Below, in pieces: positions 6,494-58,118 of a stretch of 64,000 nt of DNA (the stretch's first letter is position 1; each line of letters opens with the position of its first letter). The notes beneath the pieces are model-generated. The model saw only the letters and a list, made by a program, of their open reading frames with translations. It ran no database searches and was not told the DNA's origin. The stretch lies in assembly GCA_017523785.1 (NCBI GenBank), contig JAFWVX010000025.1, positions 9,255 to 73,254 on the forward strand, given 5' to 3'. A program made the position numbers and the translations under genes. Source of the stretch: Lachnospiraceae bacterium (GTDB taxonomy: Bacteria > Bacillota > Clostridia > Lachnospirales > Lachnospiraceae).

Positions 6494-6509
6494 TAAAAGG
6501 GAGCGACAA

Positions 6510-7016
6510 ATGATATTATTTGACAACCCAATATTATTTATAATAATTGTGATCCTTGTTGCTATGTCAGCTGCAGCAATTATATTTGCAATTATTGCAT
6601 TTGGAAAATATAGTGAATTAAATAAAAGATATGAAATGTTCATGACTGGTAAAGATGCAGAAAGTCTTGAAGAGTATTTTCTTGACTTGCAACAGGACAT
6701 AGACCATCTTATAGAAGATAACAACAAGAATAAAGACAGCATAAGAAAATTAAACCGTATTACAAAAAGAACCTTCCAAAAGGTTGGCTTCTATAAATAT
6801 GATGCATTTGAAGAAAAAACTGGAAAGAGATCATTTGCTCTCGCGCTTCTTGATTTTACAAATACAGGATTTGTGGTAACCTGTCAATCTCATGGAGATG
6901 GAACAATTATATTTATTAAGGATGTAGAAGTTGGAACAACGAGCACTAAACTTGGACCTGAAGAGGAAAAAGCTCTCGAGATAGCTATGGGTCAAAGAGA
7001 TAAGTATGAAGATTAG
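6510..7016 (+). CDS. DUF4446 family protein
   Basis: N-terminal TM helix and the C-terminal motif QKVGFYKYDAFEE..GKRSFALALLD. It has the usual position after parB in Clostridia-type genomes. Confidence 0.8.
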   Translation: MILFDNPILFIIIVILVAMSAAAIIFAIIAFGKYSELNKRYEMFMTGKDAESLEEYFLDLQQDIDHLIEDNNKNKDSIRKLNRITKRTFQKVGFYKYDAFEEKTGKRSFALALLDFTNTGFVVTCQSHGDGTIIFIKDVEVGTTSTKLGPEEEKALEIAMGQRDKYED

Positions 7017-38689: not shown

Positions 38690-38763
38690 GGCCCGGTGGC
38701 TCAGATGGTTAGAGCGCTGCCCTGTCACGGCAGAGGTCAGGGGTTCGAGTCCCCTTCGGGTCG
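38690..38763 (+). tRNA. tRNA-Asp (GTC)
   Basis: Manual cloverleaf: acceptor GGCCCGG/TCGGGTC, anticodon loop CTGTCAC, T-loop TTCGAGT. CCA is not encoded. Confidence 0.85.
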
Positions 38764-38791
38764 CAGTGGGCGGATAATATCCGCCCCTACA
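38764..38791 (+). repeat. GC-rich hairpin repeat copy between tRNA-Asp and tRNA-Tyr
   Basis: ...CAGTGGGCGGATAATATCCGCCCCTACA. Hairpin GGGCGGA/TCCGCCC plus the family tail CCCCTACA. The shared TCGCAGTG head overlaps the tRNA-Asp 3' end. Confidence 0.7.
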
Positions 38792-38798
38792 ATTTTAT

Positions 38799-38880
38799 GG
38801 ATGGGTTCCCGAGTGGCCAAAGGGGGCAGACTGTAAATCTGTTAGCATCGCTTTCGGTGGTTCGAATCCACCCCCATCCA
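38799..38880 (+). tRNA. tRNA-Tyr (GTA)
   Basis: Acceptor GGATGGG/CCCATCC, anticodon loop CTGTAAA, long variable arm, T-loop TTCGAAT. CCA is not encoded. Confidence 0.85.
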
Positions 38881-38889
38881 AGGTTTTTC

Positions 38890-38962
38890 GGGGTGTTAGC
38901 TCAGCTGGGAGAGCATCTGCCTTACAAGCAGGGGGTCATAGGTTCGAGCCCTATACGCCCCA
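38890..38962 (+). tRNA. tRNA-Val (TAC)
   Basis: Acceptor GGGGTGT/ACGCCCC, anticodon loop CTTACAA, T-loop TTCGAGC. CCA is not encoded. Confidence 0.85.
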
Positions 38963-38986
38963 TTTTTCTAAAAAAACCCATATTAT

Positions 38987-39060
<74 letters not shown>

Positions 39061-39063
39061 CGC

Positions 39064-39092
39064 AAAAAGAAGGCAAAATAGCCTTCTTTTTT
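39064..39092 (+). terminator. Intrinsic terminator of the tRNA operon
   Basis: AAAGAAGGC-AAAATA-GCCTTCTTTTTT. Confidence 0.75.
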
Positions 39093-39416
39093 GTTATGTA
39101 ATAATTTAAATATTAATAATACATAATATAAAAATATGAATAATAATAAAAATAATGTATACCACAATACAACATATAGTAGTTTTATGTCAAATAAAAC
39201 ACACCTTGTAGGGTTTTCTCATTAAAAGAAATTTAATAAAATCGCCAAAAAGTGGCAAAAAATCAATAAAATAAGTATTAAGATTTTATTAAGATTACTT
39301 AAGACTTATTGAGAAAATAAGGGCTTTTTAGTAAAATTATTATGCATAAGTTTAATAGGAGTGGAGGGCCTATTATATTATTTTAGTGTGCAATTTTATA
39401 TTGCAGAGGAAAGAAT

Positions 39417-42400
39417 ATGAAAGAGCAATTTAAAAAACTCATATCTATTATTTTAATAGTCGCAATGACTATTACTAATAATGGTTTATTTGTTTTGGCT
39501 GACAGTGTTGATAATATTGTCGACCAGAGTTTGAGTACTGCTCAAGAAACTCCAAACTATTATTACTATGAGGAAACAACGACAGTTGAAGATTATCAAG
39601 CATACCTTGAGTCAGAAAATCCAGGTGTCTATGACGAAGAAGTAGAGACAAAGGACTATGCTGACAAAAGTGAAGAGGATGAGATTGAATCATCTGAGAC
39701 TTTTGATGTGGAAGAAACCAGTAAAGAAGAATCAGATGAAGTAGAGGATACAAGTGAATCTACAGAGAACGAAGATGAGGAGGAAACAACTACTGTTCGT
39801 GAGGAAACAGAGAAAGAGACAGTAAATGAAAAAGGGGAAGCTGCAACAGAATCTAACGCTGAAGAAATAATAGAGCAAGATGAGGAAGAAGAGATTGCAA
39901 CAAGTTCAGAAATAGAAACTGAAGAGGTGATAGAAGAGAATATAGCAACTGAGTCAGAAATTTTACCTGAAGAAGAAAACAATGTTGAAAACCTTGCGAC
40001 AGAATCAGATATTAACAAAGTAGTTGCGACAGAGTCTGAGTTAGAAGAAAATATTTCTACAAATTCTGAAGCAATGATTGAAAAAGAAATTATCGTTGCT
40101 ACAGTTTCAAAAATATCTTGGAAGGTTAAAAAAGTTTTGATTGCGACATTTGCATCGATAAATGTTAAAGCAAGCGAGACTGAGAAAGAAAGAGTGGCAA
40201 GACTTGCAACTTATGCAAATGTTATCATCGTAAATGATAAAGGTGATGAAAAGATATTTAAAGTAAATCTCAAGTGGAAATTATTTAAGAAATATGATGT
40301 AAACGCAAGATCAGATAAGCAAGAAGCTCCTATACCAAAAGAAGAGTGGAGAAAAACTCTTAAGGTAGATGAGTTCATAAAAGATCAAGAAGAAGTAGTG
40401 GTTTCAACTAGAAATATCGCATTAGTTGAAGAGAGAGTTAAAGAAGAAAATGCAAAATATGAAGATAAAGAATTCGTAGTTAAGTTCCAAAACGATAGTG
40501 AAACTCAAGAAACTACAGTAAACCCAGCTGTAGAAGAAAGCAATGAAAACCCTGCTGAAAATATAGAAACAATAGAAACTACAGTAGTTATTGATGAGAC
40601 TGAAGGTGAGACTTATGAAGAAACTATTGAGACAATTATAGAGACAAGTATTGAAGAGACAAGTAATGAGATTATTGAAGAAGCAACTAAGGAAAATGAA
40701 ATTGATGAACCTACTGTTGCTGGATTTAATAATTCTGAAGACATCGCAAGTAGCAGCGATGTAGAAGAAAGTAAAGAAGTAGAGACAGAAGAAACAGAAA
40801 CTGAAGAAGTAGAAACAGTTGAGTCACAAGAAGAAAGTGAATCAGTAGATCAAAATGAAGAAGTAGAAATTCAAGAAGAACTTGCAACAGCATCTACATT
40901 AGTTGAAGAAGAAATCTCAAATGTTGATACTATGACAACAAATGGTGAAGAAATTTCTGATGAGACAATTGACTATTATGATTTACAAACAATTTATCTC
41001 TATAAAGTTGATGTACCTGCACTCGGTGATGAGATAATAGATATTATCAACAAAGAAAATTCTAATGTTGAAGAGAAAGATGAGACTGAAGAGTTGCTTG
41101 AAGAAAAACCAGAAGGAATAATCGGCGGACTCATGAAACTCTTTGGACTTGGTTCAACTGAAAGTAATGAACAAAATGATGTAGAAGAAACTAAGGAAGA
41201 AGAATTAGAAACATATTTAGAAAATGCAGAGGTTGATATCATTGATGAATCAAGGCTAGAGCCAATGGTTGCAGAGTTTGATGCACATCTTTTAGGAAGT
41301 GGTGCAACTCACGAGCAACATCAGATTTCAGTTTTTGTAAATGGCACAGTTCTGACACCAGACAATATTTTCAATTCTGTAATCGGTGGCGATGAATCAG
41401 ATATGTTAGATTTATCTGAAAATAATAGAAGAATTAAAGCAACAGGGTCAAACATATTCATTGCGGGAACTTATTATTTGCCAAGCGATATAAAAATATC
41501 AAATCAGTGGATAGTTGAAAAAAATAATACTTTGACACTTTGCTTAAATGGGCATGATGTGAAATTTGCAACAGCTGGTTGTGTAAAAGGTGAAGGAAGA
41601 GTGGTTGTATGTAACTGTGGAGGAAGCGCAACTATTTCAACTGATGGACCTACATATAATTGGCATGACAAGTGGTATGCAAGTACATCTGAGACATATA
41701 CTAAGTGGAATGAGCATTCGTTAATAGCAGGAGATGAAGTTGGAGTATATGCAAATGATAATAATATAACATTTTCAAATGTTGTAATTAAGAATCAGTA
41801 TAACGGAAGAAAAGCCGCAGCACAGATGGAAAACACGGAAATAGATGAAGCAGAGTTATCAGGTGATGGTTCTATTCTTTGGGGTAAAAAAGAAATACAA
41901 GTTTATGGAGCAAAATTCGCAAATAATAGAGCAACTAGATCAAATGGTGTTGCTGTAAATGCACAACTTGGAAAGATGACTCTTGAAGACTGCTCGTTTG
42001 TTGATAATAGAAATTTAACAAATAGAGGTGGAGCAGTAGCATTTAACCCTAAAGCAACTATTATAAATAATTGTGTGTTTAAAGATAATATTTCATTTAC
42101 TAATGGTGGGGCACTTTTTGGCAGGTCATATACAAATTCTGTTGAAAGTGTTGAAATTGGAACAAAGATTTCAAAGAGTACATTTGAAAATAATGTAGCA
42201 CTGATAGATGGCGGAGCTATATTTATGGACTATCTTTGCGAAAAAGGAGTGACAATAGAGGGAACGGAAGCAGATAAGGTAGTATTTAAAAATAATTATG
42301 CCGGTGCATCAGGTGGTGCAATATCAGTTAGACATATGAGATCGGTAGATGGACAAGAAGAAAATGCATACTCATATGAAGATCCTACAAGTAGGGGAAG

Positions 42401-45400
42401 GCTTTTAAATATTAATTATGCAGTATTTGAAGGAAATGAAGCAAAGGCACTAATTATAAATAAAAATACAGGAGCCATATCAGAAAATCCCCTTTCTTTA
42501 AAGGAAAATTTTGGTGGTGCAATAAATTTAAATTCTCAGACGATAGTATATAGAACATTCCCTACAGACAGTCCAGTAAAAGAAGTAAATATTAAAAATA
42601 GCTCGTTTAAGAATAATATAGCTAAAGGATTTAAACTTGATATTAAATCAAAAGATATAACAGGAAACTTTACAGGTGAGACATTAGCGACATACTATGC
42701 AGGAAATGCAGGTGGTGCAATTTATGCAAACAAGTTAAATAAGATAAACATAGAAGATTCAGAATTTACAGATAATAAATCTATGACAGGAGCAAACCTT
42801 TGTATAAAAGAAGCTTCGGTAAGTTTTATTGGTGGAAAATTATTAAATGGTAAAGCATATAATAATAGTTATAGTGCATCAGAGTTTTATAAGAGAGTAG
42901 TATCACCTGGCGGTGGTGCAGCATATCTTATGAACGATGCCCATCTTTCTATATCAAAAGAAACTAAGATAGAAACAAATGAAAATGCATTTTATCTTGA
43001 TGGAGGCTCTATTGATTTAGGGGCTGGAACTGTAACAGGAAATACAGGAGAATACTTAATCGGATATGCAAACTATAAGTCAAACAGAATATTGTTTAGT
43101 GGTGTAGATATTAAAGATCATACATTTAATGAGATGAGAAAGGACTATACTTCTACAAGATCTGACGCTGCAACAGGTAAGAGAAATTTTAAAGATGGAT
43201 ATTATCAGACATCTTATATTTCATTTAAAGGAACAAACCTCATAACAAATAATAAAAGAAACTTCTACACAAAAACTGGAACAACATACACAAGTAAGAA
43301 TGAAGAAGCAAATATTGTTATGACAGCATCTGATTCTAATTTACAAATGGATTTGAGCAAATATTTATTTGATGTTCCATTCACAGACCAAGATGTAAGT
43401 CAGGGAATTGGACTTTATTATGACTTTGACCCTGACCCAAATAAAGATCAGATTACCGCATATGATAGATGGACTTATGAAAATGTAAAAGTTATAGACG
43501 AGGGTGGTCTTTGGACAAACTACTTTGAGATAGATAACTCAAGTAAAGGTGAGTGGGCAGAAAACTGGAAGTTTTATATAGAAAAGAATGAGATAAGAAT
43601 GAGTCCGCACATTGTGCAGGTTAAGTTTGACTCCTATATAGAAAATGTTCCAAGAATAAAACCACAGTTCTACAATTTTAGAAAAGGTGGTGGAACGACA
43701 TTAAAAATTGCAACCCCAACAGAGATTGTAAGAAGAGACATTCATACACCAGGAAAGACTTTGCTGGGATTCCTTGGAGTAGACAAATCAAAAGATGTCG
43801 AAAATACAAAATATGATATATGGGATTTTGATAAATGTGAAATTGATCCATCAAGAACTGATGGTGATGTAATAGAGATAATCTTAGTATATACAGATGA
43901 TACAATAAAAATAAAACCATGTGGATGTGAAAATGGTAAAGCTTGTGCTCATGAAGGAGTGAGCATTAATCACTCTGATAGAGGAATTGGAACAAGTGAA
44001 GAAGAAAATAGATATTTAAATTACATTGAAGTAGCAACATACCCTCAACTTGCTTATAAATATAAGGGGAGAAAGACTCAGTATGTATTGAGTAAAGACC
44101 TTAGACTTACTGGAAATCAAGCAAAAGATTATATTGATGGTGGTATGGTTCTTAACCTAAATGGAAAAACTCTTACATATGATACAAGAGAGAGTAACGA
44201 TTCACACATCTTAGATACTACAGGAACAGATGTTATGCATACTGCAAATGACTCAAAGATTATGATCTGTGGTATAGCAACACCAGGAGCAGTAGAAAGA
44301 GGTAAGATAGTAGCTAATGGAACACATAAAGGAGCATTTATATATAGCAATACTGATGTATATCTAAGCTACCTTGACATTATGAATGTATCAGCGGTGG
44401 ATGGTTCTGATAAAGCATTTATACAAAGCGCAGATACAAATATCAATACTTATGTGAATACAAAAGAAGTAACATTTACTAACATAAATTTAAAATCAGA
44501 TTTAATTAATGCCGGTTCAAGAGTTGTGTTATCAGACACAAAGATTTCAAATGCTGAATTAGATGGTAGTGTTGTAAAACTTCGTGCTGAAGCAAACAAG
44601 GAAACCGCTTTTGAATTATTAAACACAGATATTACAGGACTTACCAAAGCAAATGCACTTCTTGGTTCGGATTTAACTAGTCCAACAGGAACAAAAGTTA
44701 GAATATCTACATCAAATATTACTAACAGTGTATTTGAAACTCAGTTAATTAAATTGGATGATTCTTCAACAGGTGCTAACTCTGAATTAAAACTTCAAGG
44801 CGAAGTAAAGATAAATGGAAACAAATTAAATTCTGGTTCAGTATTTATTTCAAATGCAGCAACAAATGGAAGCGACGTATTTGGTGTAAGCGTAGATGAC
44901 AGAATTGAAATTAACAACAACACTCTTCCACATAGCGATGGAGTAACACTTCTTACACTTTACCAGAAGTCAGTTACATTTAAGGGTGATGTATCACTCA
45001 CTGGAAATAAGACTGTTGCAAGTGGTAGAGCAACAGAAAAAGTTAGTGCTGTTAAAGCAGGAAATAATACAAGTGTGTTACTTGATGAAGTTGCTATTAG
45101 AGTAACTGATAACTTAACAAAGTATGAGTGGTATGCTGAAAATACAGACGGAACCACACAGACATTTGAGAAAGCAATATTTACTCAGGTTGCTGGAACA
45201 AAACTTAAGGCTTCAGATTCTATAATAAAGATTAGACTTGCTGTAAGTGACGAGGATGAGTCACAAAAGATTTATGAAAATTGGTCAGCAAATAATATTA
45301 TAGGAGAAAAGGAAGCAGAGGCTACATTCTTAAGAGATGATTCTTATTCTGAAGATGAAGTTGAAGATATCTACAAGAAAGGAAAAGATGAAGAAACTTC

Positions 45401-48400
45401 TGATATCTATATGGGATCAACTTATGTTGCAGTTAGATATAGACTATATAATTATAAGGCAAATGTAGATGAGAGGCTAGATGAATCAGCAGGTTATACA
45501 CAAGCAGCAATACAAAGAGTAGAACCTGATGTATATACTTTACTTGATACACCACAATATAAGTTTGATTTTTCAAGAACTTCAGTTATGTGGGAAGCAT
45601 TTGCATACAGAAAATCTGATGGAACTTATGATTATTCTGATGAAAGATTATACCCAGAGAAGACAACACATATAGGAATTAGATCAACAAAGAGTGTATT
45701 GGTATCAGGATATATTTATAACTATAACAATAAGCGACATGTGCATGAAGGAAATATAGAGTTATGGACTGAGGCAAGAAATGAAGGACATTTACAAGCA
45801 ACTAACTCATTTGTCTTCTTGCATAATGACTTAGAAATTACTAGACCACTTAAGTATAAACCAGAGAAGACTTACCACCTATGTTTAAATGGACATAAAC
45901 TCATAGTTAATAATAGTATAGAATGGTTTAAGTCAAGCACTTGTAAATTGATAATTTGTGATTGCCAGAAGACAGGAAGCATTGTCCAAAATAGTGGCGA
46001 AATTGCAAGTAAGTTTATAAATATAAGTGGTGGAGAAATTGATATTAGCGATATCACATTTGGACCATTTAAGAATGTAAATAATACAGAGTTTGTAAAT
46101 GTAGCAGAGACTGTTAAAGTAAACATTGATAATGTAGTGGTAAAAGAAATCAATATGGATAACTTTGTAAAGACTGATAATGCATTTATAAATATTAAGA
46201 CAAATAATTTAGCAAGTATAAGTAATGTGACATTTAGATCAAATAAGATGTTATCTAATGATAAAACCAATGCAATATTCACAGTAGATAACAAGAGCGG
46301 TGGAAGCATTAACATTGATGGTATAAGTTTAGAGAGTAATGAAGTAAACGCTGACACATCTAAAAATATAAATGGATCAGGATATGTAGTTAAAGTTAAT
46401 GGATATGATAGAGTTACACTCAACTCGCCAACATTAAAATCCAATAAGGTTGTTTTAGGTGCCCCTATACAGATAAACGGTAATAGTTCAGCAACATCAT
46501 ACAATAAAATTCTTACCATGACGAATGTTACATTTGAAGAAAACCAAAAGAATTTTGTAAATAGTATGAAACTTGAAGACCAAGCAAAAGATGGAATATC
46601 TGCTAACTATGCAAGTATTAATTTCAATAACATAATCATAAATGGCGGATCTTTTAAAGGAAATAGATTCAATTCAAATGCAGCAACTTTAGCAGGCGAC
46701 GATGGTGCAGTAATTGATTTAACAAACTATGATGCAAATCTTACAGTTAAAGATGTAATGTTTGATGGAACTGGAACAACTGCAAATGATAATGTATTTG
46801 GTATGTTGATTCTTGATAAAGGCGATGACTTGTTTGAGAATGTAACAATTACAAATTACAATATGGGATCAACTGCTTATATGCTTCTTGCAAAAGGAAC
46901 TTCAAATAGTCCTGCTGGAACATATGTGGGTAGAACAACATTTAGAGGAACAACAAAGTTTACAAACAACAAAGCTAAATCAATGGTCAGAGTTGAGAAT
47001 GAAAGAAACGATGTCAACAATGATTATGAAGGATTATTGTTGATTGATGGAACAACATTTACTAACAATACCGCAAATAATCCAAAAGTAACTGGTCTTA
47101 GCGGATTGATAGAAATTGACTCAAATACTATAGTAGTAGCAAGTGGAGCTAATATAGCTAAGACAACAGGAATTGCAGTCTATATCGCTACAAGTGAGTT
47201 TAGAATGTTTAACTCAGAGATTAGTGGCGGATTAGGAAACGATGCGGCTGTATATGTAAAAGATGCTGGAAGACTTGTCCTTGGTGATAAAGTTATAGTA
47301 AAAGATAATAAGATAAATATTTATCTTGACGGCGATGGCAGCATCAATGCTCAAATAAAAGCAATGGATGGACATCCAATATCAGCAACATCAGAAATTT
47401 ATATTACGGTTCCAGACATAGAATATAATTTCTTTAATCAATGGGGAAATAATTATATAAAGAATTATAATTATCATCAAGGCAACACATATGCATATTT
47501 ACCAAATGATTTATTTAAACTTGATGCTGCAATAGCAAGCAACAGAAAGATATATATTAAAGGTGATATTGCTTCAGGAAACCAAGAGTTGTGGGTATCA
47601 TCTAACCAAGCAACATATGAATATGCAACACTTATATTCTTTGATAAAGATATAAAAGGACCTAAAGAGATAGCAAGACAGTATATAAAGATTGGACAAA
47701 AGACAAAACTTGATAGAGTGCAAGTTGATTATATCTCAACATTAAGTCAAGTGTGGATGACAGAAGCAAATGGTGATAAACCAGAAGAACAAACTATGTG
47801 GAGACTTTACAGCAATGGACAATATCACGACTTTGAAGTAGTTAATTATGAAGCAGGAAAAACATATTATGCATATTTAACAAAGAAACATGTTCATAAG
47901 ATTTGTGGACCTGATTCACTTGTGCCTTGTGGTCCAAATCACGCAGATGGAATAGCTCACACAGTCGACTATGAGTTCTTACAAGTAGGAACTAATGATA
48001 ATATAATAATTGAAGCTTCAAGAAGTAACTATATAGGACTTTCAAATAATTTGACTATTAATCAAGCAGCACTTAACTCGTTAAGTAATAGAGAAATAGT
48101 ATTCTGTATAAATGGATATACTTTGACATTTGAAAAAGATGCAATGCTTAATACAAGTCACAGTTTTGCACTTATTAACTGTGAAAGCACAGGTGTTGTA
48201 ACAGTCAATGAAAATGAAAAAACAACCAACTCACTTATTAGTGCAAGTGGGGCGGGAAATACATTTAGTTTATATAATATTAATTTCCATAATTTTGAGA
48301 CAGAAGCATCTGTAATAAAAGTTCAAAATGTAAAAACAGTAAGTGAGAATGTAAAGTTTACAGAGATTGAATCAACAGCACCTAATGGAATATATGATAT

Positions 48401-51400: not shown

Positions 51401-54400
51401 TAATTCATACCTAAAAGCAAGCGGAATGGTAAGCGGAAAGTCTAAGATGAGTTTTGCTATAAATGGAACAACACAAAAAGTGTTTGAAGGTTGGGATAAG
51501 AATCATATAGAGACTTTTGGAATGACTGCTTCTAAGTCAACTCCAAAGAGATATACATATACACCAGAGAATTCAGGCTTATTTGCAGCTAAGTCACCAA
51601 GTGGATATGCAATTTATAAAGGTGGAACAGGTGATAATTTAAGCATATATGCAGGAAATAGAGATTCATATAGTGTCCTTTCATTTATCTATGTGGATGA
51701 GGATTATGTAGAGTCAACTCTTGAGACACAGAATGTCATAAAGGGAGCAACAGCAATTGATACTCTTCTTGATGTAGTAGATACTTTTGAATATGAGTTA
51801 GAGCATCAAACTTGGTATGCTCCAAATCCATCAACAGGTGCACATGATGTAAAATGGGAGTTTAAGAATGATGTAATTTCAAATATCAATAACGATGCAC
51901 AAATTAAATATGTGAGAAAACATATTCATAGAGTATGTGGAACTAAATACGAAGATACTTGTGACCACAAAGAGACAAATGTTAGACATGCAAATACAGT
52001 TATCTATGTAGATGCTACAAGTTCAAATCCAACATATTGGCCACGTAGTGCAGAGTATATAAATCTTTTAAATGATATAGAGTTTAATAATAGACTCGAT
52101 TTAGAGAATCTTAAAGGTATATGTTTGAACGGACATAAGCTCATTGTTGGAAATATGCATAACAACTTTATGTCAATTAGCTCTGAACTAAATATCTGTG
52201 ACTGCAAACATAAAAAGACTACAAACGGAGCTATAACGATAAAGAACGGAGTGACATTACAAGATAGTTTAATCTATGTTGGGTCAGGCGGAACATTCAA
52301 TGCATACAATATCAACTTTGAAAATATAACTTTGAAAGATTATGTTGACTTTACTACTACATATACATTTGCAATAGAGAATTCAAATAATGGTACAGTA
52401 TATCTTGAAAGACCAGTATTTAGAGGACCAACTGAAGCTGGTGAAAATGGACTATTAAAGAATAGAGGTGGTGCAAGTCAGTTTAAAGTTATTGAGGCAT
52501 TGATTACAGATGTTACTCTTAACAGCCCATCACCATTACTTACACTTACAGGTAGCTTTAATATATCGACTATATCAGTAATTAAGAATTATGGTTATAC
52601 TGTTCCACTTATAAAAGTGACAGATGATGTTTCAGTAGGAAGCTTTGTGCTATCAAATAACTCAGGCTCAACTGGTCAAGGTCTTATATCTGTAGATGAA
52701 GGTGTAACATTAACACTTACTAATAATAATACATTTGAAGGAAATGAGTCACAAGGTGGAGGAGTTATAAAGGTTGCTGGAACTCTTGTAGCTGAAAAAG
52801 ATTTGATATTTAAAGACAATGTGACAGTAAAAGGAAGCGGAAATGGTGGAGCTCTTTATGTCAATGCAACTGGTAAAGTAATAACAAAAGGAAAGACTAA
52901 ATTTATAGGCAATGAGGCAATGCATGGTTCTGCAATTTATGCTGAGAATATAACTGAAGAAGCACTTAAAAATTTGAATGAACCTTATTTTGAAGCAAAC
53001 ACAGCAATAACAAGTGGTGTTGTATATTGGTCAGGAGAACTTAGACTTTCTACTCCAACGATAGTTAAACATGAACCATATAATAAGACAACTCTTAAAG
53101 GTGTAAGAAGTGGTATATTCATAAATGAAAAATCTGGAGATAAGTTAATACTTGAAAATCCAGTGTTTGCAGACAACAATATAGTAGGAAATGATGATAG
53201 TGCATCAGCAATAAAACTACATGGTGTTGTTGATGGAAGTAGAGTTGTAGGCTTTGATGAAAAATCTAAGAATAACTCTATGAATGACTTTATCTTCTTA
53301 GAAGATAGTGATATGGAGATCAGTGGTGAAATCAACAGGACATCATTAAATAATAATTTTAAAGAGACTGTAATTAGCATTAAGAATGCTGGAAAAGTAA
53401 TGCTTAAAGATTTGTCTATTGAAGAGCAGACAGTAGGAAATGCAGCTCTTTACATATCAGGTGCACCGGTATCTATAGATGGCAAGATAAGAGTTACTTC
53501 TAATAGTACTGCAGAACGTATAGATGCTAAGAATATTTACTTAACTGATGAGTTAGCATATTTTATAGCATCAGGAAAAGAAGGTGCTGTATCTTACATT
53601 GATGAATCGTCAATTATGGACATTTCAACTTCTGGACAAAAAGAGGCAAAGGTGTTTGAAGGATGGAATGAGTATAATTTTGAGCATTATGACAAACCAT
53701 ATGTTGATAGCAGCACGAATAAATATATGTATACTCCAGAGAACTCAGGTATATTCGCAGTGGGCAACGACTTAGAGGAAAAAGGATATGAGTTCTTTAA
53801 GAAAGGTTATGCTGGAGATGGTGATGGAAATGGAGACATTTATCTTGGCACAGATGAAAAATTTGTAAAACTTAAATACTATAATGATGTAGAAGAAGTT
53901 GAAGACTATGAAGAGAAAGATGGCGACAAGGAATATTATGGCAATCAGAACATAGCAAAAGATATTCCAACAAAACTTGATAAGGTAGATTCTCAAGAGT
54001 ATGAGATCGAGAAGCAAGAGTGGTATGTAGGATATCAAAGTAAGGATACTTATGACCACCTTGAGAAGTTCAACCCAGCTAATCCTCAACCAACGATTGC
54101 AGGAGTAAATGGTGTTGTAGAAGAGTTTTCAACAAACCAAGAGATTAAATATCATCAGTTCCATATTCATAAAATATGTGGATTAAAATTAAGTGAAGAA
54201 TGTGAACATGAAGGACATGCGGACCATGTTGGAACAGTAGAGTTTAATGATGTAAATACTATAGCTGAACTTGAGGCAGCAACTGGATATGCAGTGCTAG
54301 TAAAAGACTTAGATATTGCAAATATGCAAAGAGCACTAAGATTAAATCCTGGTCTCACAGGCATTTGTCTAAATGGCCATACAATAATGGGTGATGGTAG

Positions 54401-57400
54401 ATATGGATTAATGAATATAGACCATGCATTCACGATTTGTGATTGTAAGTTAGAAAAAGGAACAGGAGCAATTACATCTGATGAATCATTTACTCAAGCA
54501 TTTGATGTAATCAACATTAACACAAGTGCAGAAGTAGGTATCTATAGAGTAAGAATAAAAGATATAGCATTTGCAGCAGGTTATGCAGTAAATGTAGAAC
54601 AAGGAAATGTATATATCGGATCATTAATCATAAGCGAATGCACAAGAGTAGGTTCAAATGGTGTTATAAGAGCAAATGCTAATGTAGTTATTGACCACTT
54701 GTCGTTTGAATCTAATAAGATTTCGGTTGCAAATCCTATGCTAAGAATTAATGACAAGATGAACATCAAGAATCTGAATATTAGTGAAAACGAGGTAGAG
54801 GACTCTATAGTAATAGTTGATTCAAATACATCTTTAGGTAACCTCATAGCTAATAGCAATAAGAGCACTGGACGAGGTGTGATAAATATAAACTCTGGTA
54901 AAACTTTGACTGTCGATTATCAAGAGTATAGTGATAACGAAGCAAGACTAGGTGGAGCTTTATATGTCTCTGGAACATATATAAATAGAGATAAGGGATT
55001 ATCTTGGAACAATAACATTGCAACAGAAAAAGGCGGAGCTATCTATATTGCTGAAGGCGGAAAGATTAACTTATCACAAGAGAATTCATTTATTACAAAT
55101 CAAGCAGCAGAAGGTGCCGCAATATATGCTGAGAAATTAAGTAGCACAGACTTAGGAATACCTAAAGCAGAGTTTATTGATAATAAAGCAACAAGTGGTG
55201 GCGTAGTATCATTTGGTGGAGAACTTGAAATTTCGGATGTTAAGTTCACTGACACTAATCAGAGTACTGCCTTTATAGATAATATTAATAAAAACACAAC
55301 TATAGATAAGGCAATTATATCATCTGTATCATTTGTGAGAAATGCAACTGGCGGAAAAGGTATAACTCTTACAAATGTTAGAAATGGATCAAAGGTAGAA
55401 AATATTACTGGAAATGATAACACACTTGATACTTTAATAGAATTCAATAATGTGACAAGTGGCAACAGAGTTTATGTAACCAACGTAACAGGAGTTTCTT
55501 CTAATACGTTTGGTGGTGCTGCTATATCATTTAATAATGTTGCTGATGCAGTATTAAACAATGTAACGCTAAGTGGAAATACATCTAATGGATTTGGTGC
55601 AATGCTTATATATGGCAGCAACACAAAAGTTTACTCAGTAGGAGAATTGAGGCTTATAAATAATACAAATACTGGAGCATATGGTGCAGCCATAACAATT
55701 CTTGATAAAGCTAATCTTGAAGAGGACGGCGGATTAATAGTGACAGGAAATAGATCTAACCAAGGCGGAGCAATCTATCTTGATGGAACTATGGGAGTTG
55801 AGTCACAAGGTTCAAAACCACTCAAGGTATCAGTAAACTATATTAATTCAACTAACGATACAAAGAACATATATGTAGCTAATGTAAACTCTTATGTATA
55901 TGCAACTGGAAGATTGAGCGATGATACACAACTTGGATTTACTGCTGGCGATGTAAATGTTACTGCATTTAAATATTGGAATAGTAGTTATATAAGTAAG
56001 ATTGGAAGCACTGATAAATTCACTTATACTCCTGAAAATTGTGGAATGTTCTTAGTCGATACACTGTCAGCTAATGCAAAACAAGAATTATATAAGAGCG
56101 GAACTGGAAATGACATAGTAGTGAAACTTGGAGTAAACTTTACAAAACTTCGTTTCGTATCTGCAGATAAGAAGACAGAGTATCTAACTCAAAATATTGA
56201 AAGAGGTGTAAATACAAAACTTGATAAAGTGCTAGTAGAGACTGTAACAGAGAAGTGGATAGCACCAAATAAACAATCAGCATCAGATTATAAGTGGCAG
56301 TTTAATAGATCAGATATCGTTGCTAACTATAGTTCTGAAGAAGAATATATATATAAACTATTCACATATTCAATAGTATATACAGGCGGGTCAAAAGGTG
56401 GCTCAAGAACTTATAACAACATAGAATATGGAGAAGCAGTATATGCAATAGAGAATCCTTTTGGCGGTGATGGATTTAAGTCTTGGAAACTTAGAAATGT
56501 TATATCGGGATTACCAAGAGAATATGCAGTTGGTGATTTGATTAAAAATGTCTGCCAAAATGACGGAGGTATTGCATACTTTGATGCAAGATGGAGCGGG
56601 GAAGTATGGGTTAAGATAGATCCAAATGCAGAGAGATACGGATTACAAATAGAATATAATGCAATATATGATTTTTATGGCAATGCAAATTCAGGAATAA
56701 GACTTTCTGCAACATACCCTTATTCGTTAGGTGGCTCATATAATACATATAGCTACAATACAAAGCCAGATGGAAGTGGAACAAGCTATGCAGTAGGAAC
56801 AACAGCATCATTTAATGATGATGTAGTGCTCTATGTAATCTGGGGAAGAGGAAGCAGTCCACATAGTGGTGGAGGCGGAACTAGCGGTGGTGGTGGCACT
56901 GGAGGCGGCGGAGGCGGCCGTGGAGGTGCTAGAATTAGTGGTGGCACAATTAGACCAGAGGACTTATTAACTGGACCTGGAGTAGAAATGGCTGTAGAAC
57001 CACTACCTGTAAATGTTGGAGTATTCACAGTTGACGAATATGGAAATATAAGAGACAAGGATCAAAATATAGTTGGTAATATTTACATAGGTGACAGAGT
57101 AAATGCCGATGGAAGTTTTACAGCCGTTAATGGCATAACGGTTTATCCTAACGGAGTTATAGTAGACATGTTTGGAAATATTTATAACACAGATGGAACT
57201 ATAATCACAGCTACAGGAAACAAATATTTCGTAAACGGTGATGTGATGGATCCAACTGGAGCTATCTATCATCCAGATGGATCAATAACTCTTCCTAATG
57301 GTGTTGTGAAAGATGCAGATGGCATAATTCATTATCCAGATGGATCAATAATGTTACCAGATGGAACAACATATTTGGTTGATGGAACGACAATATCTCC

Positions 57401-58118
57401 AGGAGGAATACAAGTAAATCAATTGGGAGAAATTATTCCTTCTGAAAGTGATGGAAATCAAGATACACCTGGTGCTTGGAACTATGACCCTGCAACTAAT
57501 AATTGGAAGTTTGAATTAATTAATGCAGATGGAAGTAGGATAACATATAAAGATCAATGGATTAGAACTAAGAATGCCCAAGGCGAATCTACTTGGTACA
57601 CAGTTGATAGAGAAGGTAATATGATTACTGGATGGTTAAAGAGTGAGGGAGAATATTACTACATGTCAACTAACCCTAACTCAAGAGGTGAGATTGTCAA
57701 AGGAACTGTAACTATAGATGGAAAGAGTTATACATTTGATGCAGACACAGGTGCTCTTAAGTCAGGGGATGTTCCAACTAAGAACCTAAGTGTATTGGGT
57801 GCAGTAAATCATGTATCGGGAGTAGATGGAACTTGGAAGAAGTACGACACTGGTGAGACTTACTTCGTATCATTCTTCGAGATGCCAGACGGAAGTATCT
57901 TAGAGGTTCCACCATCAAGCTGGTATATGTTAGACGGAAAATATTATTTCTTTGACGAATACGGCATACCTAAGACAGGACTTGTAGTATTTGATGAAAA
58001 ATATTATTACTTCAACACTGACGGCACTATGCTTGAAGGAGGAGAGGTCTTGATTGATGGCATAACTTATGTATTTGACAAAGCGACTGGTGCATGTAGG
58101 ACAATGAGGCTTAACTAA
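39417..58118 (+). CDS. Giant (6233 aa) secreted modular beta-helix surface protein with Pmp-type repeats and C-terminal cell-wall-binding repeats
   Basis: Uninterrupted 18,702-nt ORF with a GAGGAAAG SD. Layout: Sec signal peptide (MKEQFKKLISIILIVAMTITNNGLFVLADS); acidic E/T/S tract; seven divergent modules with many GGAI(Y)/FxxN repeats; two Listeria-Bacteroides-type repeats; a poly-Gly tract; DG-rich short repeats; GW../YYF cell-wall-binding repeats. No LPXTG. Confidence 0.9.
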   Translation: MKEQFKKLISIILIVAMTITNNGLFVLADSVDNIVDQSLSTAQETPNYYYYEETTTVEDYQAYLESENPGVYDEEVETKDYADKSEEDEIESSETFDVEETSKEESDEVEDTSESTENEDEEETTTVREETEKETVNEKGEAATESNAEEIIEQDEEEEIATSSEIETEEVIEENIATESEILPEEENNVENLATESDINKVVATESELEENISTNSEAMIEKEIIVATVSKISWKVKKVLIATFASINVKASETEKERVARLATYANVIIVNDKGDEKIFKVNLKWKLFKKYDVNARSDKQEAPIPKEEWRKTLKVDEFIKDQEEVVVSTRNIALVEERVKEENAKYEDKEFVVKFQNDSETQETTVNPAVEESNENPAENIETIETTVVIDETEGETYEETIETIIETSIEETSNEIIEEATKENEIDEPTVAGFNNSEDIASSSDVEESKEVETEETETEEVETVESQEESESVDQNEEVEIQEELATASTLVEEEISNVDTMTTNGEEISDETIDYYDLQTIYLYKVDVPALGDEIIDIINKENSNVEEKDETEELLEEKPEGIIGGLMKLFGLGSTESNEQNDVEETKEEELETYLENAEVDIIDESRLEPMVAEFDAHLLGSGATHEQHQISVFVNGTVLTPDNIFNSVIGGDESDMLDLSENNRRIKATGSNIFIAGTYYLPSDIKISNQWIVEKNNTLTLCLNGHDVKFATAGCVKGEGRVVVCNCGGSATISTDGPTYNWHDKWYASTSETYTKWNEHSLIAGDEVGVYANDNNITFSNVVIKNQYNGRKAAAQMENTEIDEAELSGDGSILWGKKEIQVYGAKFANNRATRSNGVAVNAQLGKMTLEDCSFVDNRNLTNRGGAVAFNPKATIINNCVFKDNISFTNGGALFGRSYTNSVESVEIGTKISKSTFENNVALIDGGAIFMDYLCEKGVTIEGTEADKVVFKNNYAGASGGAISVRHMRSVDGQEENAYSYEDPTSRGRLLNINYAVFEGNEAKALIINKNTGAISENPLSLKENFGGAINLNSQTIVYRTFPTDSPVKEVNIKNSSFKNNIAKGFKLDIKSKDITGNFTGETLATYYAGNAGGAIYANKLNKINIEDSEFTDNKSMTGANLCIKEASVSFIGGKLLNGKAYNNSYSASEFYKRVVSPGGGAAYLMNDAHLSISKETKIETNENAFYLDGGSIDLGAGTVTGNTGEYLIGYANYKSNRILFSGVDIKDHTFNEMRKDYTSTRSDAATGKRNFKDGYYQTSYISFKGTNLITNNKRNFYTKTGTTYTSKNEEANIVMTASDSNLQMDLSKYLFDVPFTDQDVSQGIGLYYDFDPDPNKDQITAYDRWTYENVKVIDEGGLWTNYFEIDNSSKGEWAENWKFYIEKNEIRMSPHIVQVKFDSYIENVPRIKPQFYNFRKGGGTTLKIATPTEIVRRDIHTPGKTLLGFLGVDKSKDVENTKYDIWDFDKCEIDPSRTDGDVIEIILVYTDDTIKIKPCGCENGKACAHEGVSINHSDRGIGTSEEENRYLNYIEVATYPQLAYKYKGRKTQYVLSKDLRLTGNQAKDYIDGGMVLNLNGKTLTYDTRESNDSHILDTTGTDVMHTANDSKIMICGIATPGAVERGKIVANGTHKGAFIYSNTDVYLSYLDIMNVSAVDGSDKAFIQSADTNINTYVNTKEVTFTNINLKSDLINAGSRVVLSDTKISNAELDGSVVKLRAEANKETAFELLNTDITGLTKANALLGSDLTSPTGTKVRISTSNITNSVFETQLIKLDDSSTGANSELKLQGEVKINGNKLNSGSVFISNAATNGSDVFGVSVDDRIEINNNTLPHSDGVTLLTLYQKSVTFKGDVSLTGNKTVASGRATEKVSAVKAGNNTSVLLDEVAIRVTDNLTKYEWYAENTDGTTQTFEKAIFTQVAGTKLKASDSIIKIRLAVSDEDESQKIYENWSANNIIGEKEAEATFLRDDSYSEDEVEDIYKKGKDEETSDIYMGSTYVAVRYRLYNYKANVDERLDESAGYTQAAIQRVEPDVYTLLDTPQYKFDFSRTSVMWEAFAYRKSDGTYDYSDERLYPEKTTHIGIRSTKSVLVSGYIYNYNNKRHVHEGNIELWTEARNEGHLQATNSFVFLHNDLEITRPLKYKPEKTYHLCLNGHKLIVNNSIEWFKSSTCKLIICDCQKTGSIVQNSGEIASKFINISGGEIDISDITFGPFKNVNNTEFVNVAETVKVNIDNVVVKEINMDNFVKTDNAFINIKTNNLASISNVTFRSNKMLSNDKTNAIFTVDNKSGGSINIDGISLESNEVNADTSKNINGSGYVVKVNGYDRVTLNSPTLKSNKVVLGAPIQINGNSSATSYNKILTMTNVTFEENQKNFVNSMKLEDQAKDGISANYASINFNNIIINGGSFKGNRFNSNAATLAGDDGAVIDLTNYDANLTVKDVMFDGTGTTANDNVFGMLILDKGDDLFENVTITNYNMGSTAYMLLAKGTSNSPAGTYVGRTTFRGTTKFTNNKAKSMVRVENERNDVNNDYEGLLLIDGTTFTNNTANNPKVTGLSGLIEIDSNTIVVASGANIAKTTGIAVYIATSEFRMFNSEISGGLGNDAAVYVKDAGRLVLGDKVIVKDNKINIYLDGDGSINAQIKAMDGHPISATSEIYITVPDIEYNFFNQWGNNYIKNYNYHQGNTYAYLPNDLFKLDAAIASNRKIYIKGDIASGNQELWVSSNQATYEYATLIFFDKDIKGPKEIARQYIKIGQKTKLDRVQVDYISTLSQVWMTEANGDKPEEQTMWRLYSNGQYHDFEVVNYEAGKTYYAYLTKKHVHKICGPDSLVPCGPNHADGIAHTVDYEFLQVGTNDNIIIEASRSNYIGLSNNLTINQAALNSLSNREIVFCINGYTLTFEKDAMLNTSHSFALINCESTGVVTVNENEKTTNSLISASGAGNTFSLYNINFHNFETEASVIKVQNVKTVSENVKFTEIESTAPNGIYDIQSGTVYVENLAFTDNIASGSSLLDLRFGSFTAGKIGNININNNTYTNKLLSLSGTGNMDSIVVNNNTMIEGGGADSYGAIYVANGANITYAHDAVISANDSSINEESKGGALTVYGRLNFNGKMTLEDNKAGLGGAIYVDSTGSLHVTGEAYFRENEAKVGAAIYAKNWSNINFSSVTYDGNRAKTHGVVAFGGNYNRGIATFKNHTRSSRDLIYNINDNGTDSFTIDKETLFVDNTLADSIIYLRNVSSANVEISYLSTGNSVKSFVEIATSSITIDNSVITENTFNDSAFIFNNPITARVASISVYENKITNAVLSVSGGAVEIGNRMTFRDNVPRLGKTKELYVSGKGGYFKATEKITMGKKYLFSAYTNGIKVFEKWNATYIDNYDNPQSKEPGRYMVTPENSDTIKLSDDDKERGLGFYKVGSTDNQDIYIGKEGIDFIQLRFIGPEKDNAVFASQNLEKGKETKLDKVDTLECDLAKQKWVATMSDGTAKTLIFTSTQTASSSDTINILYTRPHLHKICGITRNETCNHTNGASHTEIEYQIVANAAEFASTTNQYVYIKDNITVDSTINLASGIIGICLNGYTLKITGGANSLFNTNNELSICNCKPKGGITTGDEVQEAAIINYTGTSLAVYNVDFFGINTNKSVIKLPNTGTTTLYTENLRFRNNKDLGYDTVIDSVGNNTIYINDVTFADNKNESDNNMLDIDSGYIVSTLSFINNDTHSRLMWFCNSNLVNIKSLIVKNNKITDDSMLAYVDSGAKVNVANDVLFENNIVDGEALLAMDTRIEFAVLGTMSFINNVAKKHAAMEIEDNTTISARNMLFDGNKNLEANNAIVEWSESTLRLDNVVFKNHTNASDILLGNVDNNGTSKIYLSSPSFINNKGIAIKLDGIEDGYITGIKLTKDLNNNFTNVLNIRNSSVSITDFVVKDNNLVNSAVAVSESDKVELKDIEINNNSITTSGASALSLNGNGSILKVKGLISVDGNTSDISLSDNSYLKASGMVSGKSKMSFAINGTTQKVFEGWDKNHIETFGMTASKSTPKRYTYTPENSGLFAAKSPSGYAIYKGGTGDNLSIYAGNRDSYSVLSFIYVDEDYVESTLETQNVIKGATAIDTLLDVVDTFEYELEHQTWYAPNPSTGAHDVKWEFKNDVISNINNDAQIKYVRKHIHRVCGTKYEDTCDHKETNVRHANTVIYVDATSSNPTYWPRSAEYINLLNDIEFNNRLDLENLKGICLNGHKLIVGNMHNNFMSISSELNICDCKHKKTTNGAITIKNGVTLQDSLIYVGSGGTFNAYNINFENITLKDYVDFTTTYTFAIENSNNGTVYLERPVFRGPTEAGENGLLKNRGGASQFKVIEALITDVTLNSPSPLLTLTGSFNISTISVIKNYGYTVPLIKVTDDVSVGSFVLSNNSGSTGQGLISVDEGVTLTLTNNNTFEGNESQGGGVIKVAGTLVAEKDLIFKDNVTVKGSGNGGALYVNATGKVITKGKTKFIGNEAMHGSAIYAENITEEALKNLNEPYFEANTAITSGVVYWSGELRLSTPTIVKHEPYNKTTLKGVRSGIFINEKSGDKLILENPVFADNNIVGNDDSASAIKLHGVVDGSRVVGFDEKSKNNSMNDFIFLEDSDMEISGEINRTSLNNNFKETVISIKNAGKVMLKDLSIEEQTVGNAALYISGAPVSIDGKIRVTSNSTAERIDAKNIYLTDELAYFIASGKEGAVSYIDESSIMDISTSGQKEAKVFEGWNEYNFEHYDKPYVDSSTNKYMYTPENSGIFAVGNDLEEKGYEFFKKGYAGDGDGNGDIYLGTDEKFVKLKYYNDVEEVEDYEEKDGDKEYYGNQNIAKDIPTKLDKVDSQEYEIEKQEWYVGYQSKDTYDHLEKFNPANPQPTIAGVNGVVEEFSTNQEIKYHQFHIHKICGLKLSEECEHEGHADHVGTVEFNDVNTIAELEAATGYAVLVKDLDIANMQRALRLNPGLTGICLNGHTIMGDGRYGLMNIDHAFTICDCKLEKGTGAITSDESFTQAFDVININTSAEVGIYRVRIKDIAFAAGYAVNVEQGNVYIGSLIISECTRVGSNGVIRANANVVIDHLSFESNKISVANPMLRINDKMNIKNLNISENEVEDSIVIVDSNTSLGNLIANSNKSTGRGVININSGKTLTVDYQEYSDNEARLGGALYVSGTYINRDKGLSWNNNIATEKGGAIYIAEGGKINLSQENSFITNQAAEGAAIYAEKLSSTDLGIPKAEFIDNKATSGGVVSFGGELEISDVKFTDTNQSTAFIDNINKNTTIDKAIISSVSFVRNATGGKGITLTNVRNGSKVENITGNDNTLDTLIEFNNVTSGNRVYVTNVTGVSSNTFGGAAISFNNVADAVLNNVTLSGNTSNGFGAMLIYGSNTKVYSVGELRLINNTNTGAYGAAITILDKANLEEDGGLIVTGNRSNQGGAIYLDGTMGVESQGSKPLKVSVNYINSTNDTKNIYVANVNSYVYATGRLSDDTQLGFTAGDVNVTAFKYWNSSYISKIGSTDKFTYTPENCGMFLVDTLSANAKQELYKSGTGNDIVVKLGVNFTKLRFVSADKKTEYLTQNIERGVNTKLDKVLVETVTEKWIAPNKQSASDYKWQFNRSDIVANYSSEEEYIYKLFTYSIVYTGGSKGGSRTYNNIEYGEAVYAIENPFGGDGFKSWKLRNVISGLPREYAVGDLIKNVCQNDGGIAYFDARWSGEVWVKIDPNAERYGLQIEYNAIYDFYGNANSGIRLSATYPYSLGGSYNTYSYNTKPDGSGTSYAVGTTASFNDDVVLYVIWGRGSSPHSGGGGTSGGGGTGGGGGGRGGARISGGTIRPEDLLTGPGVEMAVEPLPVNVGVFTVDEYGNIRDKDQNIVGNIYIGDRVNADGSFTAVNGITVYPNGVIVDMFGNIYNTDGTIITATGNKYFVNGDVMDPTGAIYHPDGSITLPNGVVKDADGIIHYPDGSIMLPDGTTYLVDGTTISPGGIQVNQLGEIIPSESDGNQDTPGAWNYDPATNNWKFELINADGSRITYKDQWIRTKNAQGESTWYTVDREGNMITGWLKSEGEYYYMSTNPNSRGEIVKGTVTIDGKSYTFDADTGALKSGDVPTKNLSVLGAVNHVSGVDGTWKKYDTGETYFVSFFEMPDGSILEVPPSSWYMLDGKYYFFDEYGIPKTGLVVFDEKYYYFNTDGTMLEGGEVLIDGITYVFDKATGACRTMRLN
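41334..56360 (+). repeat. Seven divergent protein-level modules (about 600-860 aa each) inside the giant ORF
   Basis: Module starts are marked by Cys/His motifs at nt 43920, 45738, 47889, 49959, 51921 and 54162; the first module has CLNGH at 41541. Each module has (L/I)C(L/I)NGH/Y, then IC(D/N)C, then GGAI/FxxN repeats, then (V)FE(K/G)WN..YTPENSG(I/L)F..DIY(I/L)G..TKLDKV. Confidence 0.75.

Follow-up and report, generated by a model that had tools for sequence, protein, structure and literature searches.

Contig JAFWVX010000025.1 of a Lachnospiraceae bacterium (assembly GCA_017523785.1) contains, within the 64,000-nucleotide stretch analyzed here (the window), a gene for a protein of 6233 amino acids (the giant protein; positions 39417..58118, + strand). 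The product is probably a giant fibrillar surface protein of an uncultured rumen Lachnospiraceae bacterium, tethered non-covalently to the cell wall and most likely serving as an adhesin. Adhesion fits best because the protein combines a Sec signal, a serial beta-helix rod made of seven modules (M1 to M7), Pmp-type repeats, no catalytic signature and a wall-binding type of C-terminus behind a flexible spacer. It is from this architecture only that an adhesin or host-interaction role is proposed.

The gene is real and under constraint, being open without a stop and having colinear orthologues. As an earlier note on this DNA had stated, it is a single uninterrupted open reading frame (ORF), which starts with ATG and has no internal stop in its 6233 codons; base composition predicts a stop in 8.5% of codons, and the chance of such an open stretch is ~1e-242. 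The remaining five frames contain 217-893 stops across the same interval. Codon-position composition is of the coding type, with 35% G at position 1 and 79% A+T at position 3, and a ribosome-binding site (AGAGGAAAG) lies just upstream. A consensus scan returned a candidate promoter, TTGAGA-17-TAAAAT, at 39309..39337 (+), downstream of the terminator of a tRNA cluster; it is a pattern match only. Collapse or expansion of a repeat during assembly is unlikely, because no direct DNA repeat across the gene exceeds 60 nt and those present are only 60-87% identical. Intact orthologues of the same length, moreover, occur in other assemblies.

Among these orthologues, P0002 (6186 aa) is colinear with the giant protein and 56% identical to it over 5773 residues, P0177 (6230 aa) is 62-74% identical per module, and P0175 has 6253 aa. 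P0003, which falls in the same cluster as P0177, is truncated and 66% identical, and the fragment P0005, which comes from an independent assembly, shares 99.7% identity with the giant protein. Region by region, every module included, the giant protein aligns with the orthologues in the same order. Among the modules conservation is highest in M1 (74% identity to P0177, 69% to P0002), and the acidic N-terminus is the least conserved region (47-53%). The M6-M7 region is also found, at 61-62% identity, in three GTDB genomes, namely, two rumen Lachnospiraceae metagenome-assembled genomes (MAGs; goat reticulum and water deer rumen) and one 'uncultured Clostridia' MAG. In all three the frame stays open through the entire 10-kb upstream flank, and behind it a second frame is open for at least 2686 aa. 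Two giant genes also lie in tandem in the window, and this tandem pair is conserved in the three MAGs (L002-L004).

The giant protein begins with a predicted Sec-type signal peptide of 28 residues (aa 1-28, 39417..39500; this and all other parts of the gene lie on the + strand), in which MKEQFKK leads into a hydrophobic core and cleavage is expected between VLA and DS. The signal peptide named in the earlier note thus stands: the lysine pair, the core and the VLA/DS site are in place, and the 19-residue windows of highest hydrophobicity in the entire protein are those at aa 7-13. The same N-terminus recurs in the paralogue and in the orthologues, and Sec export with removal of the signal peptide is predicted. 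The acidic sequence described for the following region is present, but it forms two stretches flanking the N-module and not the single one that had been claimed. The first (aa 29-221, 39501..40079) contains 34% D+E, the motif NYYY and four copies of (V/I/L)A(T/S)xS(E/D); the second (aa 346-640, 40452..41336) also contains 34% D+E and has EPTVAGF at aa 431-437. Between them, the N-module (aa ~222-345, 40080..40451) was rightly called conserved, since it is common to the downstream paralogue, with whose N-module it aligns; it has no Pfam or PDB match. Searched against PDB sequences, the N-terminal 640 aa produced noise only (ferritin, E 0.1). Three motifs of the acidic region, which is otherwise of low complexity, namely, NYYY just after the signal peptide, (V/I)AT(E/D)SE in four to six copies, and EPTVAGF, are seen in both paralogues and most orthologues and might serve in processing, glycosylation or docking; EPTVAGF is kept in the paralogue, P0177, P0003 and the second ORFs of L002-L004.

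The second giant paralogue (58250..64000, +) comprises at least 1916 aa and runs off the end of the window. It consists of the N-terminal cassette, an M1-type module and then a DUF285 domain (PF03382, E 1e-23), and it shares with the giant protein the signal peptide, the NYYY motif, the (V/I)AT(E/D)SE repeats, the N-module, EPTVAGF and the M1-type Pmp module. Since both paralogues have this cassette together with an M1-type module, and since M1 is the best conserved module, the end of the protein distal to the wall may carry a function common to the two.

Seven tandem modules, as proposed in the earlier note, were recovered with a hidden Markov model (HMM) of the module head, which places heads at aa 665, 1498, 2088, 2823, 3513, 4167 and 4914. 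The canonical module is made of a ~120-aa head, ~450-550 aa of short beta-strands and a ~150-aa tail. Heads follow the pattern HxHxxCG-x(5-7)-C-x-H-x(4-6)-H ... (I/L)CLNG(H/Y) ... (I/L)C(D/N)C ... G-I, and tails the pattern KVFExWN..YI...YTPENSG...YK.G....IY.G...F..L.F.......QNI.KG..TKLD.VD......Q.W. The Cys/His motif had been ascribed to every module; in full form it occurs in M4-M7 only, and M1-M3 have degenerate versions of it. M1 (aa 641-1495, 41337..43901) has a degenerate head (CLNGH, CNC; head HMM independent E-value (iE) 1.4e-6) and a Pmp-repeat region that is assumed to be a beta-helix, and it aligns with the M1-type module of the second paralogue. M2 (aa 1496-2108, 43902..45740), the most divergent, combines a degenerate head (iE 6.5e-5) with a weak tail (iE 5e-6) and matches the module profile with iE 3.5e-6. 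In M3 (aa 2109-2822, 45741..47882) the head lacks the two N-terminal Cys and is followed by a putative beta-helix region and a tail. A full head, a beta-helix region and a tail make up each of M4 (aa 2823-3512, 47883..49952), M5 (aa 3513-4166, 49953..51914; tail modeled), M6 (aa 4167-4913, 51915..54155; right-handed beta-helix modeled) and M7 (aa 4914-5647, 54156..56357). M4-M7 are mutually 25-26% identical over their full length (E 1e-32 to 1e-46), M3 is more weakly related to the other modules, and the relation of M1 and M2 is marginally detectable.

The Pmp-type signatures reported for the modules are enriched in the protein as a whole: GGA[ILV] occurs 13 times, against 0.4 expected in shuffled sequences, and FxxN 44 times, against 20.0 +/- 4.2. 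They do not extend to each module, since GGA[ILV] is missing from M2, M3 and M5. TIGR01376 matches with 30.3 bits (cut-off 15), and Chlam_PMP (PF02415) matches M1 in four stretches with 22.1 bits (cut-off 20.6). When single modules, the head, the N-module and C-terminal sub-regions were searched against Pfam (E<=10) and NCBIfam, only Chlam_PMP, Choline_bind and a sub-threshold DUF3659 were retrieved. Head and tail have no match in Pfam, NCBIfam or PDB sequences, and the module and junction profiles each gave zero matches to PDB sequences. The earlier note had failed to match the module to any characterized adhesin family, and these searches agree, as they gave no curated family beyond weak Pmp repeats. 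Its description of the end piece as Listeria-Bacteroides-repeat-like, on the other hand, has no sequence support. The tails match Flg_new (PF09479/TIGR02543) neither in Pfam at E<=10 nor in NCBIfam at E<=0.1, and hhalign gave the tail profile a probability of 0.1% against the InlB B-repeat protein P0173 and likewise 0.1% against the C-terminal repeats of the giant protein itself; the structural matches of the tail are to beta-grasp domains and are non-significant.

Structure prediction for single modules, another check suggested beforehand, was informative for M6. An AlphaFold2 model built from a 15-sequence module alignment reached a mean predicted local distance difference test score (pLDDT) of 81.7 and a predicted template modeling score (pTM) of 0.82, and is confidently a parallel beta-helix. 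Residues 48-582 form ~49 short strands, mostly with pLDDT above 90, as is typical of a long parallel beta-helix; confidence is low for the first 30 residues (HxH...C...C.H...H) and intermediate for the tail. All but one of the top 50 Foldseek matches in the PDB are beta-helix proteins, including PL6 and other lyases, GH28, phage tailspikes, and the adhesins Ag43, pertactin and PfbA. In the viral library BFVD, too, most matches are beta-helix proteins (best E 2e-4). On this model the right-handed beta-helix fold class is established for M6, and for the other modules it is assumed from homology. A second model, of the junction between the M5 tail and the M6 head (pLDDT 77, pTM 0.68), places the HxH in a predicted beta-strand continuing the last hairpin of the tail, followed by a low-confidence loop with the next Cys/His. 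Its Foldseek matches in the PDB are all non-significant (E>=0.057) and include MucBP-containing entries; several others, staphylococcal superantigen-like (SSL), ubiquitin-like and DIX domains, we take to be beta-grasp folds. A beta-grasp tail is thus a weak lead.

The heads concentrate the Cys and His residues of the protein. Although the seven heads make up 13% of its length, they contain 31 Cys out of 42 (binomial P 5e-19) and 34 His out of 72 (P 2.5e-12). In an alignment of 128 heads from 43 proteins, the CLNG motif is nearly invariant (C 98%, L 95%, N 90%, G 97%); in CDC the D is kept in 84% and the second C in 95%, and the upstream His in 66%. The HxH-xx-C block is seen in ~45% of heads, usually with a second Cys and a following His. 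The near-universal Cys pair, C(LNG)...(D)C, is 27 residues apart, about one helical rung, a spacing that would suit a stacked pair, a disulfide or a metal site common to both. Conditions in the rumen are strongly reducing, and on that ground metal coordination would be favored over disulfides. We tentatively suggest that the head might be an undescribed Zn/Fe-binding cap, which clamps a beta-grasp-like tail to the next beta-helix so that metal stiffens every inter-module joint; in an anaerobe, such joints would parallel those that Ca2+ rigidifies in giant adhesins of the RTX/SiiE type. Thioester, isopeptide and protease readings of the head were rejected, as its sequence has no CxQ or catalytic-triad-like pattern. 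Heads without tails recur every 300-450 residues in many proteins of 1300-2900 aa from Lachnospiraceae and Clostridia MAGs, among them P0061, P0064, P0069, P0070, P0123, P0139 and P0147, and Pfam gave no match in four of the five such proteins scanned. The head thus looks like an uncurated domain family.

Behind M7, two degenerate units resembling InlB B-repeats (aa 5648-5803, 56358..56825) were detected by BLASTP against the repeat region of P0173 (E 0.003). They have no Pfam or NCBIfam match; the units at the equivalent position of P0029, one of several distantly related giant proteins, match Flg_new below threshold (22.3 bits against a cut-off of 27). Next come a Gly-rich linker (aa 5804-5838, 56826..56930), recognized from sequence and the source of spurious PDB matches to single-chain Fv linkers, and repeats with a period of seven residues (aa ~5870-6005, 56931..57446) of the form (P/A)(D/N)G(S/T/V)(I/V)xx. 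The latter comprise ~20 tandem copies of PDGSIxL type in strict period, with a sub-threshold match to DUF3659 as their sole match. The protein ends with choline-binding repeats of the type also found in the CROPs (combined repetitive oligopeptides) of clostridial toxins (aa ~6034-6227; 57447..58118 including the stop codon), which match PF19127 in three stretches (E 2.1e-13). Their best matches are the CROPs of TcdA, TcsH and TcdB (C. difficile TcdA, E 2.5e-30); the choline-binding domain of Cpl-1 (E 1e-4) and the glucan-binding repeats of glucansucrases (partial match to TIGR04035) are also retrieved. The distant giants P0006 (4933 aa), P0017 (7300 aa) and P0029 (5614 aa) all end in choline-binding repeats as well, and in P0017 and P0029 these are preceded, as in the giant protein, by B-repeat-like units and a Gly-rich linker.

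No LPXTG signal is present, its sole look-alike (IPKTG, aa 6184) being located inside a choline-binding repeat, and a scan of the whole protein revealed no C-terminal hydrophobic or transmembrane segment. Pfam searches of the whole protein found neither the autotransporter beta-barrel (PF03797) nor the Pmp middle domain. The C-terminus is therefore as the earlier note had it: choline-binding repeats are present, and LPXTG, a C-terminal transmembrane segment and a barrel are absent. Attachment to the wall through this end is likely by analogy with pneumococcal choline-binding proteins and with Butyrivibrio proteoclasticus, a rumen Lachnospiraceae whose large cell-associated proteins are believed to be held on the wall by PF01473 repeats at their C-termini (PMC2914790). 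An S-layer protein was considered and rejected, as no SLH domain is present, and so was a polymorphic toxin, as there is no C-terminal toxin domain.

Put together, these features suggest how an adhesin of this kind might be built. The 28-residue Sec signal peptide would direct export, the C-terminal choline-binding/CROP repeats would hold the protein on a wall polymer of the producer, such as choline-substituted teichoic acid, as their presumed ligand, and the Gly linker with the seven-residue repeats would act as a spacer. The seven serial right-handed beta-helix modules would form a segmented rod, each with ~20 rungs and ~10 nm long; a Cys/His-rich head would cap the N-terminal end of each helix, and a small, possibly beta-grasp, tail would connect it to the following one. 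Seven helices of ~20 rungs at 4.8 Å, plus linkers, would add up to a rod on the order of 100 nm long. Its distal end would then be occupied by the N-terminal cassette (acidic stretches, N-module and M1), and this cassette and the Asn-rich faces of the helices may bind plant or microbial glycans or other cells. In the helix body only Asn and Phe residues stay invariant across 21 modules, and none that is acidic or basic. The protein contains 0.7% Cys, 2.5% Arg and 7.8% Ser; depletion of Cys or Arg is given as a signature of giant surface proteins in PMC10756260, citing Reva and Tummler (2008).

Several points weigh against an adhesin held on the wall. The M6 model has no Foldseek match in the PDB at E<=1e-3, and the two models cover M6 and one junction, with M1 and M2 very divergent. 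The best beta-helix matches are lyases and tailspikes, so that an enzymatic role is possible for some modules. In clostridial toxins the ligands of CROP-type repeats are carbohydrates, in streptococcal proteins they are glucans, and for this reason the C-terminus could be a ligand-binding end and not an anchor.

Two other functions follow from these points. In the first, the protein would be a wall-anchored multi-enzyme, displayed in the manner of Butyrivibrio Pel1A/Pme8B, in which some or all modules, as lyases or hydrolases, would cleave polysaccharides of plant cell walls or of microbes. PL6 alginate lyases, GH28, GH55, the RbmB lyase and phage tailspike depolymerases indeed head the Foldseek matches. 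B. proteoclasticus uses C-terminal PF01473 repeats to anchor large enzymes that degrade pectin and xylan (PMC2914790), and a beta-helix protein of 6869 residues from Ca. Epulopiscium has been interpreted as a glycosyl hydrolase of the cell surface (PMC10756260). However, the matches in the PDB are weak (E>=5.6e-3, template modeling scores 0.1-0.3) and reflect the shared fold only. Even at E<=10, Pfam finds no lyase, hydrolase or Beta_helix/NosD family in any module, and an acidic or basic residue invariant in the helix body is lacking among the 21 modules; the GGAI/FxxN repeats, moreover, are typical of adhesins. We therefore regard this function as unlikely. In the second, the CROP-type C-terminus would bind plant fiber, microbes or host mucus, and the protein would be a released or bridging one, a soluble or matrix cross-linker active in aggregation or biofilm formation. 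The resemblance of the C-terminus to the CROPs of TcdA, TcsH and TcdB, and to glucansucrase repeats, speaks for such a role, as does the finding of the giant proteins of Apilactobacillus kunkeei in both lysate and supernatant, suggesting loose attachment (PMC12863079). Yet the same type of repeat is the usual wall anchor in Lachnospiraceae and pneumococci (PMC2914790; Cpl-1 match), and the Gly linker and spacer ahead of the repeats resemble a wall-spanning arrangement; the sequence fits both readings, and we consider this one unlikely. That the gene is an artefact, produced when a repeat was collapsed or expanded in assembly, or a pseudogene open by chance, as a source sequence of metagenome type might suggest, is effectively refuted by the odds against an open frame given above, by modules that are only ~25% identical as protein in a gene free of DNA repeats above 60 nt, and by intact colinear orthologues of the same length in several independent assemblies, next to the 99.7%-identical fragment in another.

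The wall-tethered adhesin that we favor resembles several known systems without belonging to their families. With Pmp proteins and the passengers of type V autotransporters (Ag43, pertactin) it shares the right-handed beta-helix, GGA(I/L/V) and FxxN, and, in some modules, PF02415/TIGR01376; those proteins act as adhesins. It differs in lacking a barrel and a Pmp middle domain, in its Gram-positive host and in having seven helices instead of one. Its Cys/His heads and tails have no counterpart among Pmp proteins and autotransporters, and its M2, M3 and M5 are without GGA[ILV]. Gram-positive beta-solenoid adhesins, such as pneumococcal PfbA and the serine-rich repeat protein (SRRP) of Limosilactobacillus reuteri, likewise use a right-handed beta-helix as their ligand-binding part, but theirs is a single helix with an LPXTG anchor, and SRRP is exported by accessory Sec, features that the giant protein does not have. 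Serine-rich repeat adhesins are marked by a long signal peptide of KxYKxGKxW type, an AST domain and Ser-rich repeats; the signal peptide of the giant protein has 28 residues without this motif, and Ser makes up 7.8% of the protein. The giant protein works like a Pmp/autotransporter passenger or a Gram-positive beta-solenoid adhesin but belongs to neither group: tests for the barrel and the middle domain, for LPXTG and for accessory-Sec features all came out negative. Its C-terminal 200 aa are clearly homologous to the CROPs of large clostridial toxins and to pneumococcal choline-binding proteins (TcdA, E 2.5e-30; PF19127). The toxins differ in possessing a glucosyltransferase, a protease and a translocation region, none of which is found in the giant protein, and by sequence it can be placed in the choline-binding-repeat class through its C-terminus only.

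Closer in habitat are the adhesin-like proteins of gut and rumen methanogens (Methanobrevibacter, Methanosphaera), which are likewise large, Asn-rich right-handed beta-helix proteins (PMC11532034). Those are unannotated, some with Chlam_PMP repeats (PMC11532034), and have a membrane-anchoring domain or pseudomurein-binding repeats and archaeal Big domains of their own; the head/tail module and the CROP repeats of the giant protein are absent from them. The large proteins of B. proteoclasticus also come from a rumen Lachnospiraceae and have multiple C-terminal PF01473 repeats as a proposed wall anchor (PMC2914790), but they possess recognizable catalytic domains of carbohydrate-active enzymes, whereas the giant protein has none. 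The Giant1-5 proteins of A. kunkeei are encoded, in another Firmicute, by consecutive giant genes (3000-8000 aa), and have a Sec signal peptide and an elongated rod (PMC12863079). They also resemble the giant protein in a beta-solenoid near the N-terminus and in conserved C-terminal domains, with no sortase signal mentioned in the account consulted (PMC12863079). Their rods differ in being built of alpha-helical repeats or beta-sheet domains with a single beta-solenoid, and their C-terminus is of DUF5776/SH3b-like type. We found no sequence relation between the giant protein and Giant1-5, the function of which is itself inferred only (PMC12863079). In concept, the methanogen proteins, Giant1-5 and the secreted 6869-residue beta-helix protein of Ca. 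Epulopiscium, a member of Lachnospiraceae (PMC10756260), come closest to the giant protein.

Genes of this size were said in the earlier note to be rare in bacteria, and this agrees with the figure of ~0.2% of prokaryotic genes for genes above 5 kb (Reva and Tummler 2008, as cited in PMC10756260). Among the rare bacterial proteins above 5000 aa in UniProt as a whole, those for surface attachment or recognition form the second largest group, after non-ribosomal peptide synthetases and polyketide synthases (PMC11573180). The outline that the note drew of the protein is largely correct; where it singled out the protein as a candidate for an undescribed system, it went too far. A profile of five modules, searched against 1.84 billion cluster representatives, matched 10184 proteins at E<=1e-3, 2065 at E<=1e-10 and 176 at E<=1e-30, among them many multi-kilobase Pmp-like beta-helix proteins of Clostridia, so that the giant protein is no lone oddity but kin of known giant surface proteins. 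A word-indexed homology search with the module alignment as query likewise retrieved mostly generic Pmp/beta-helix proteins, including the Methanobrevibacter beta-helix protein P0158; with M6 as query its sole match was one fragment, P0001, and with the junction alignment A6 it gave zero matches. Database relatives are all 'hypothetical protein' or without a name and come from Lachnospiraceae or Clostridia MAGs. Giant secreted beta-helix proteins of gut Firmicutes and gut methanogens have already been described (PMC10756260, PMC11532034, PMC12863079), and in the literature we found no described family with the combination of features seen here. The giant protein is a new, uncurated form of giant beta-helix surface protein, distinguished by its serial head-helix-tail modules and its conserved Cys/His cap.

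Rumen Lachnospiraceae are core degraders of plant fiber. How the uncultured ones attach to fiber, host tissue and partner microbes is a little understood area on which this locus bears. At least 24 kb are committed to two giant secreted proteins, beside dnaX-recR and a tRNA cluster, and both proteins are conserved in MAGs of several species. With its Cys/His head and its tail, the module introduces two domain types that have no Pfam, NCBIfam or PDB entry. The head is widespread in large proteins of Clostridia, and curation of the two domains would give a name to many 'hypothetical' giants. Should the heads bind metal, they would represent a new way to build a rigid segmented fiber; should they not, the protein would be one more giant adhesin-like protein, mainly of use for annotation.

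The giant locus is chromosomal, judging from the housekeeping genes around it in the window (rsmG, parA, parB, dnaX, recR, cvpA and tRNAs). The same context led us to reject a prophage tail fiber. Directly upstream of the giant gene lies a cluster of four tRNAs (Asp-GTC, Tyr-GTA, Val-TAC and Met-CAT; 38690-39061, +), followed by a terminator-like hairpin (39064-39091). Exact-sequence look-up found RecR on 17 short metagenome contigs, which indicates that the species with the giant gene recurs. A 612-aa ORF without Pfam match (35733-37571, +) overlaps the end of recR, and the same neighbors are kept on other metagenome contigs; an exact-sequence look-up of this upstream protein returned no record. 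The genes for rsmG, parA, parB and DUF4446 (3767-7016, +) can be read as origin-proximal, and GC skew is positive over nearly the whole window, so that the giant genes would be on the leading strand, near the origin.

Elsewhere in the window, three further ORFs on the + strand have no Pfam match, at 7006-9522 (838 aa), 20788-22380 (530 aa) and 22815-24020 (401 aa). A 728-aa protein with seven DUF4379 'treble clef zinc finger' repeats (E 8e-125) is encoded at 24551-26737 (+). A 531-aa fusion of a FecCD-type permease with an ABC ATPase (27596-29194, -) and the adjoining gene for a periplasmic-binding protein (29342-30397, -) constitute a fused importer of the iron-siderophore/B12 type. The window opens with a gene (206-1600, +) for a 464-aa protein that contains a DUF6273 domain (E 1e-16).

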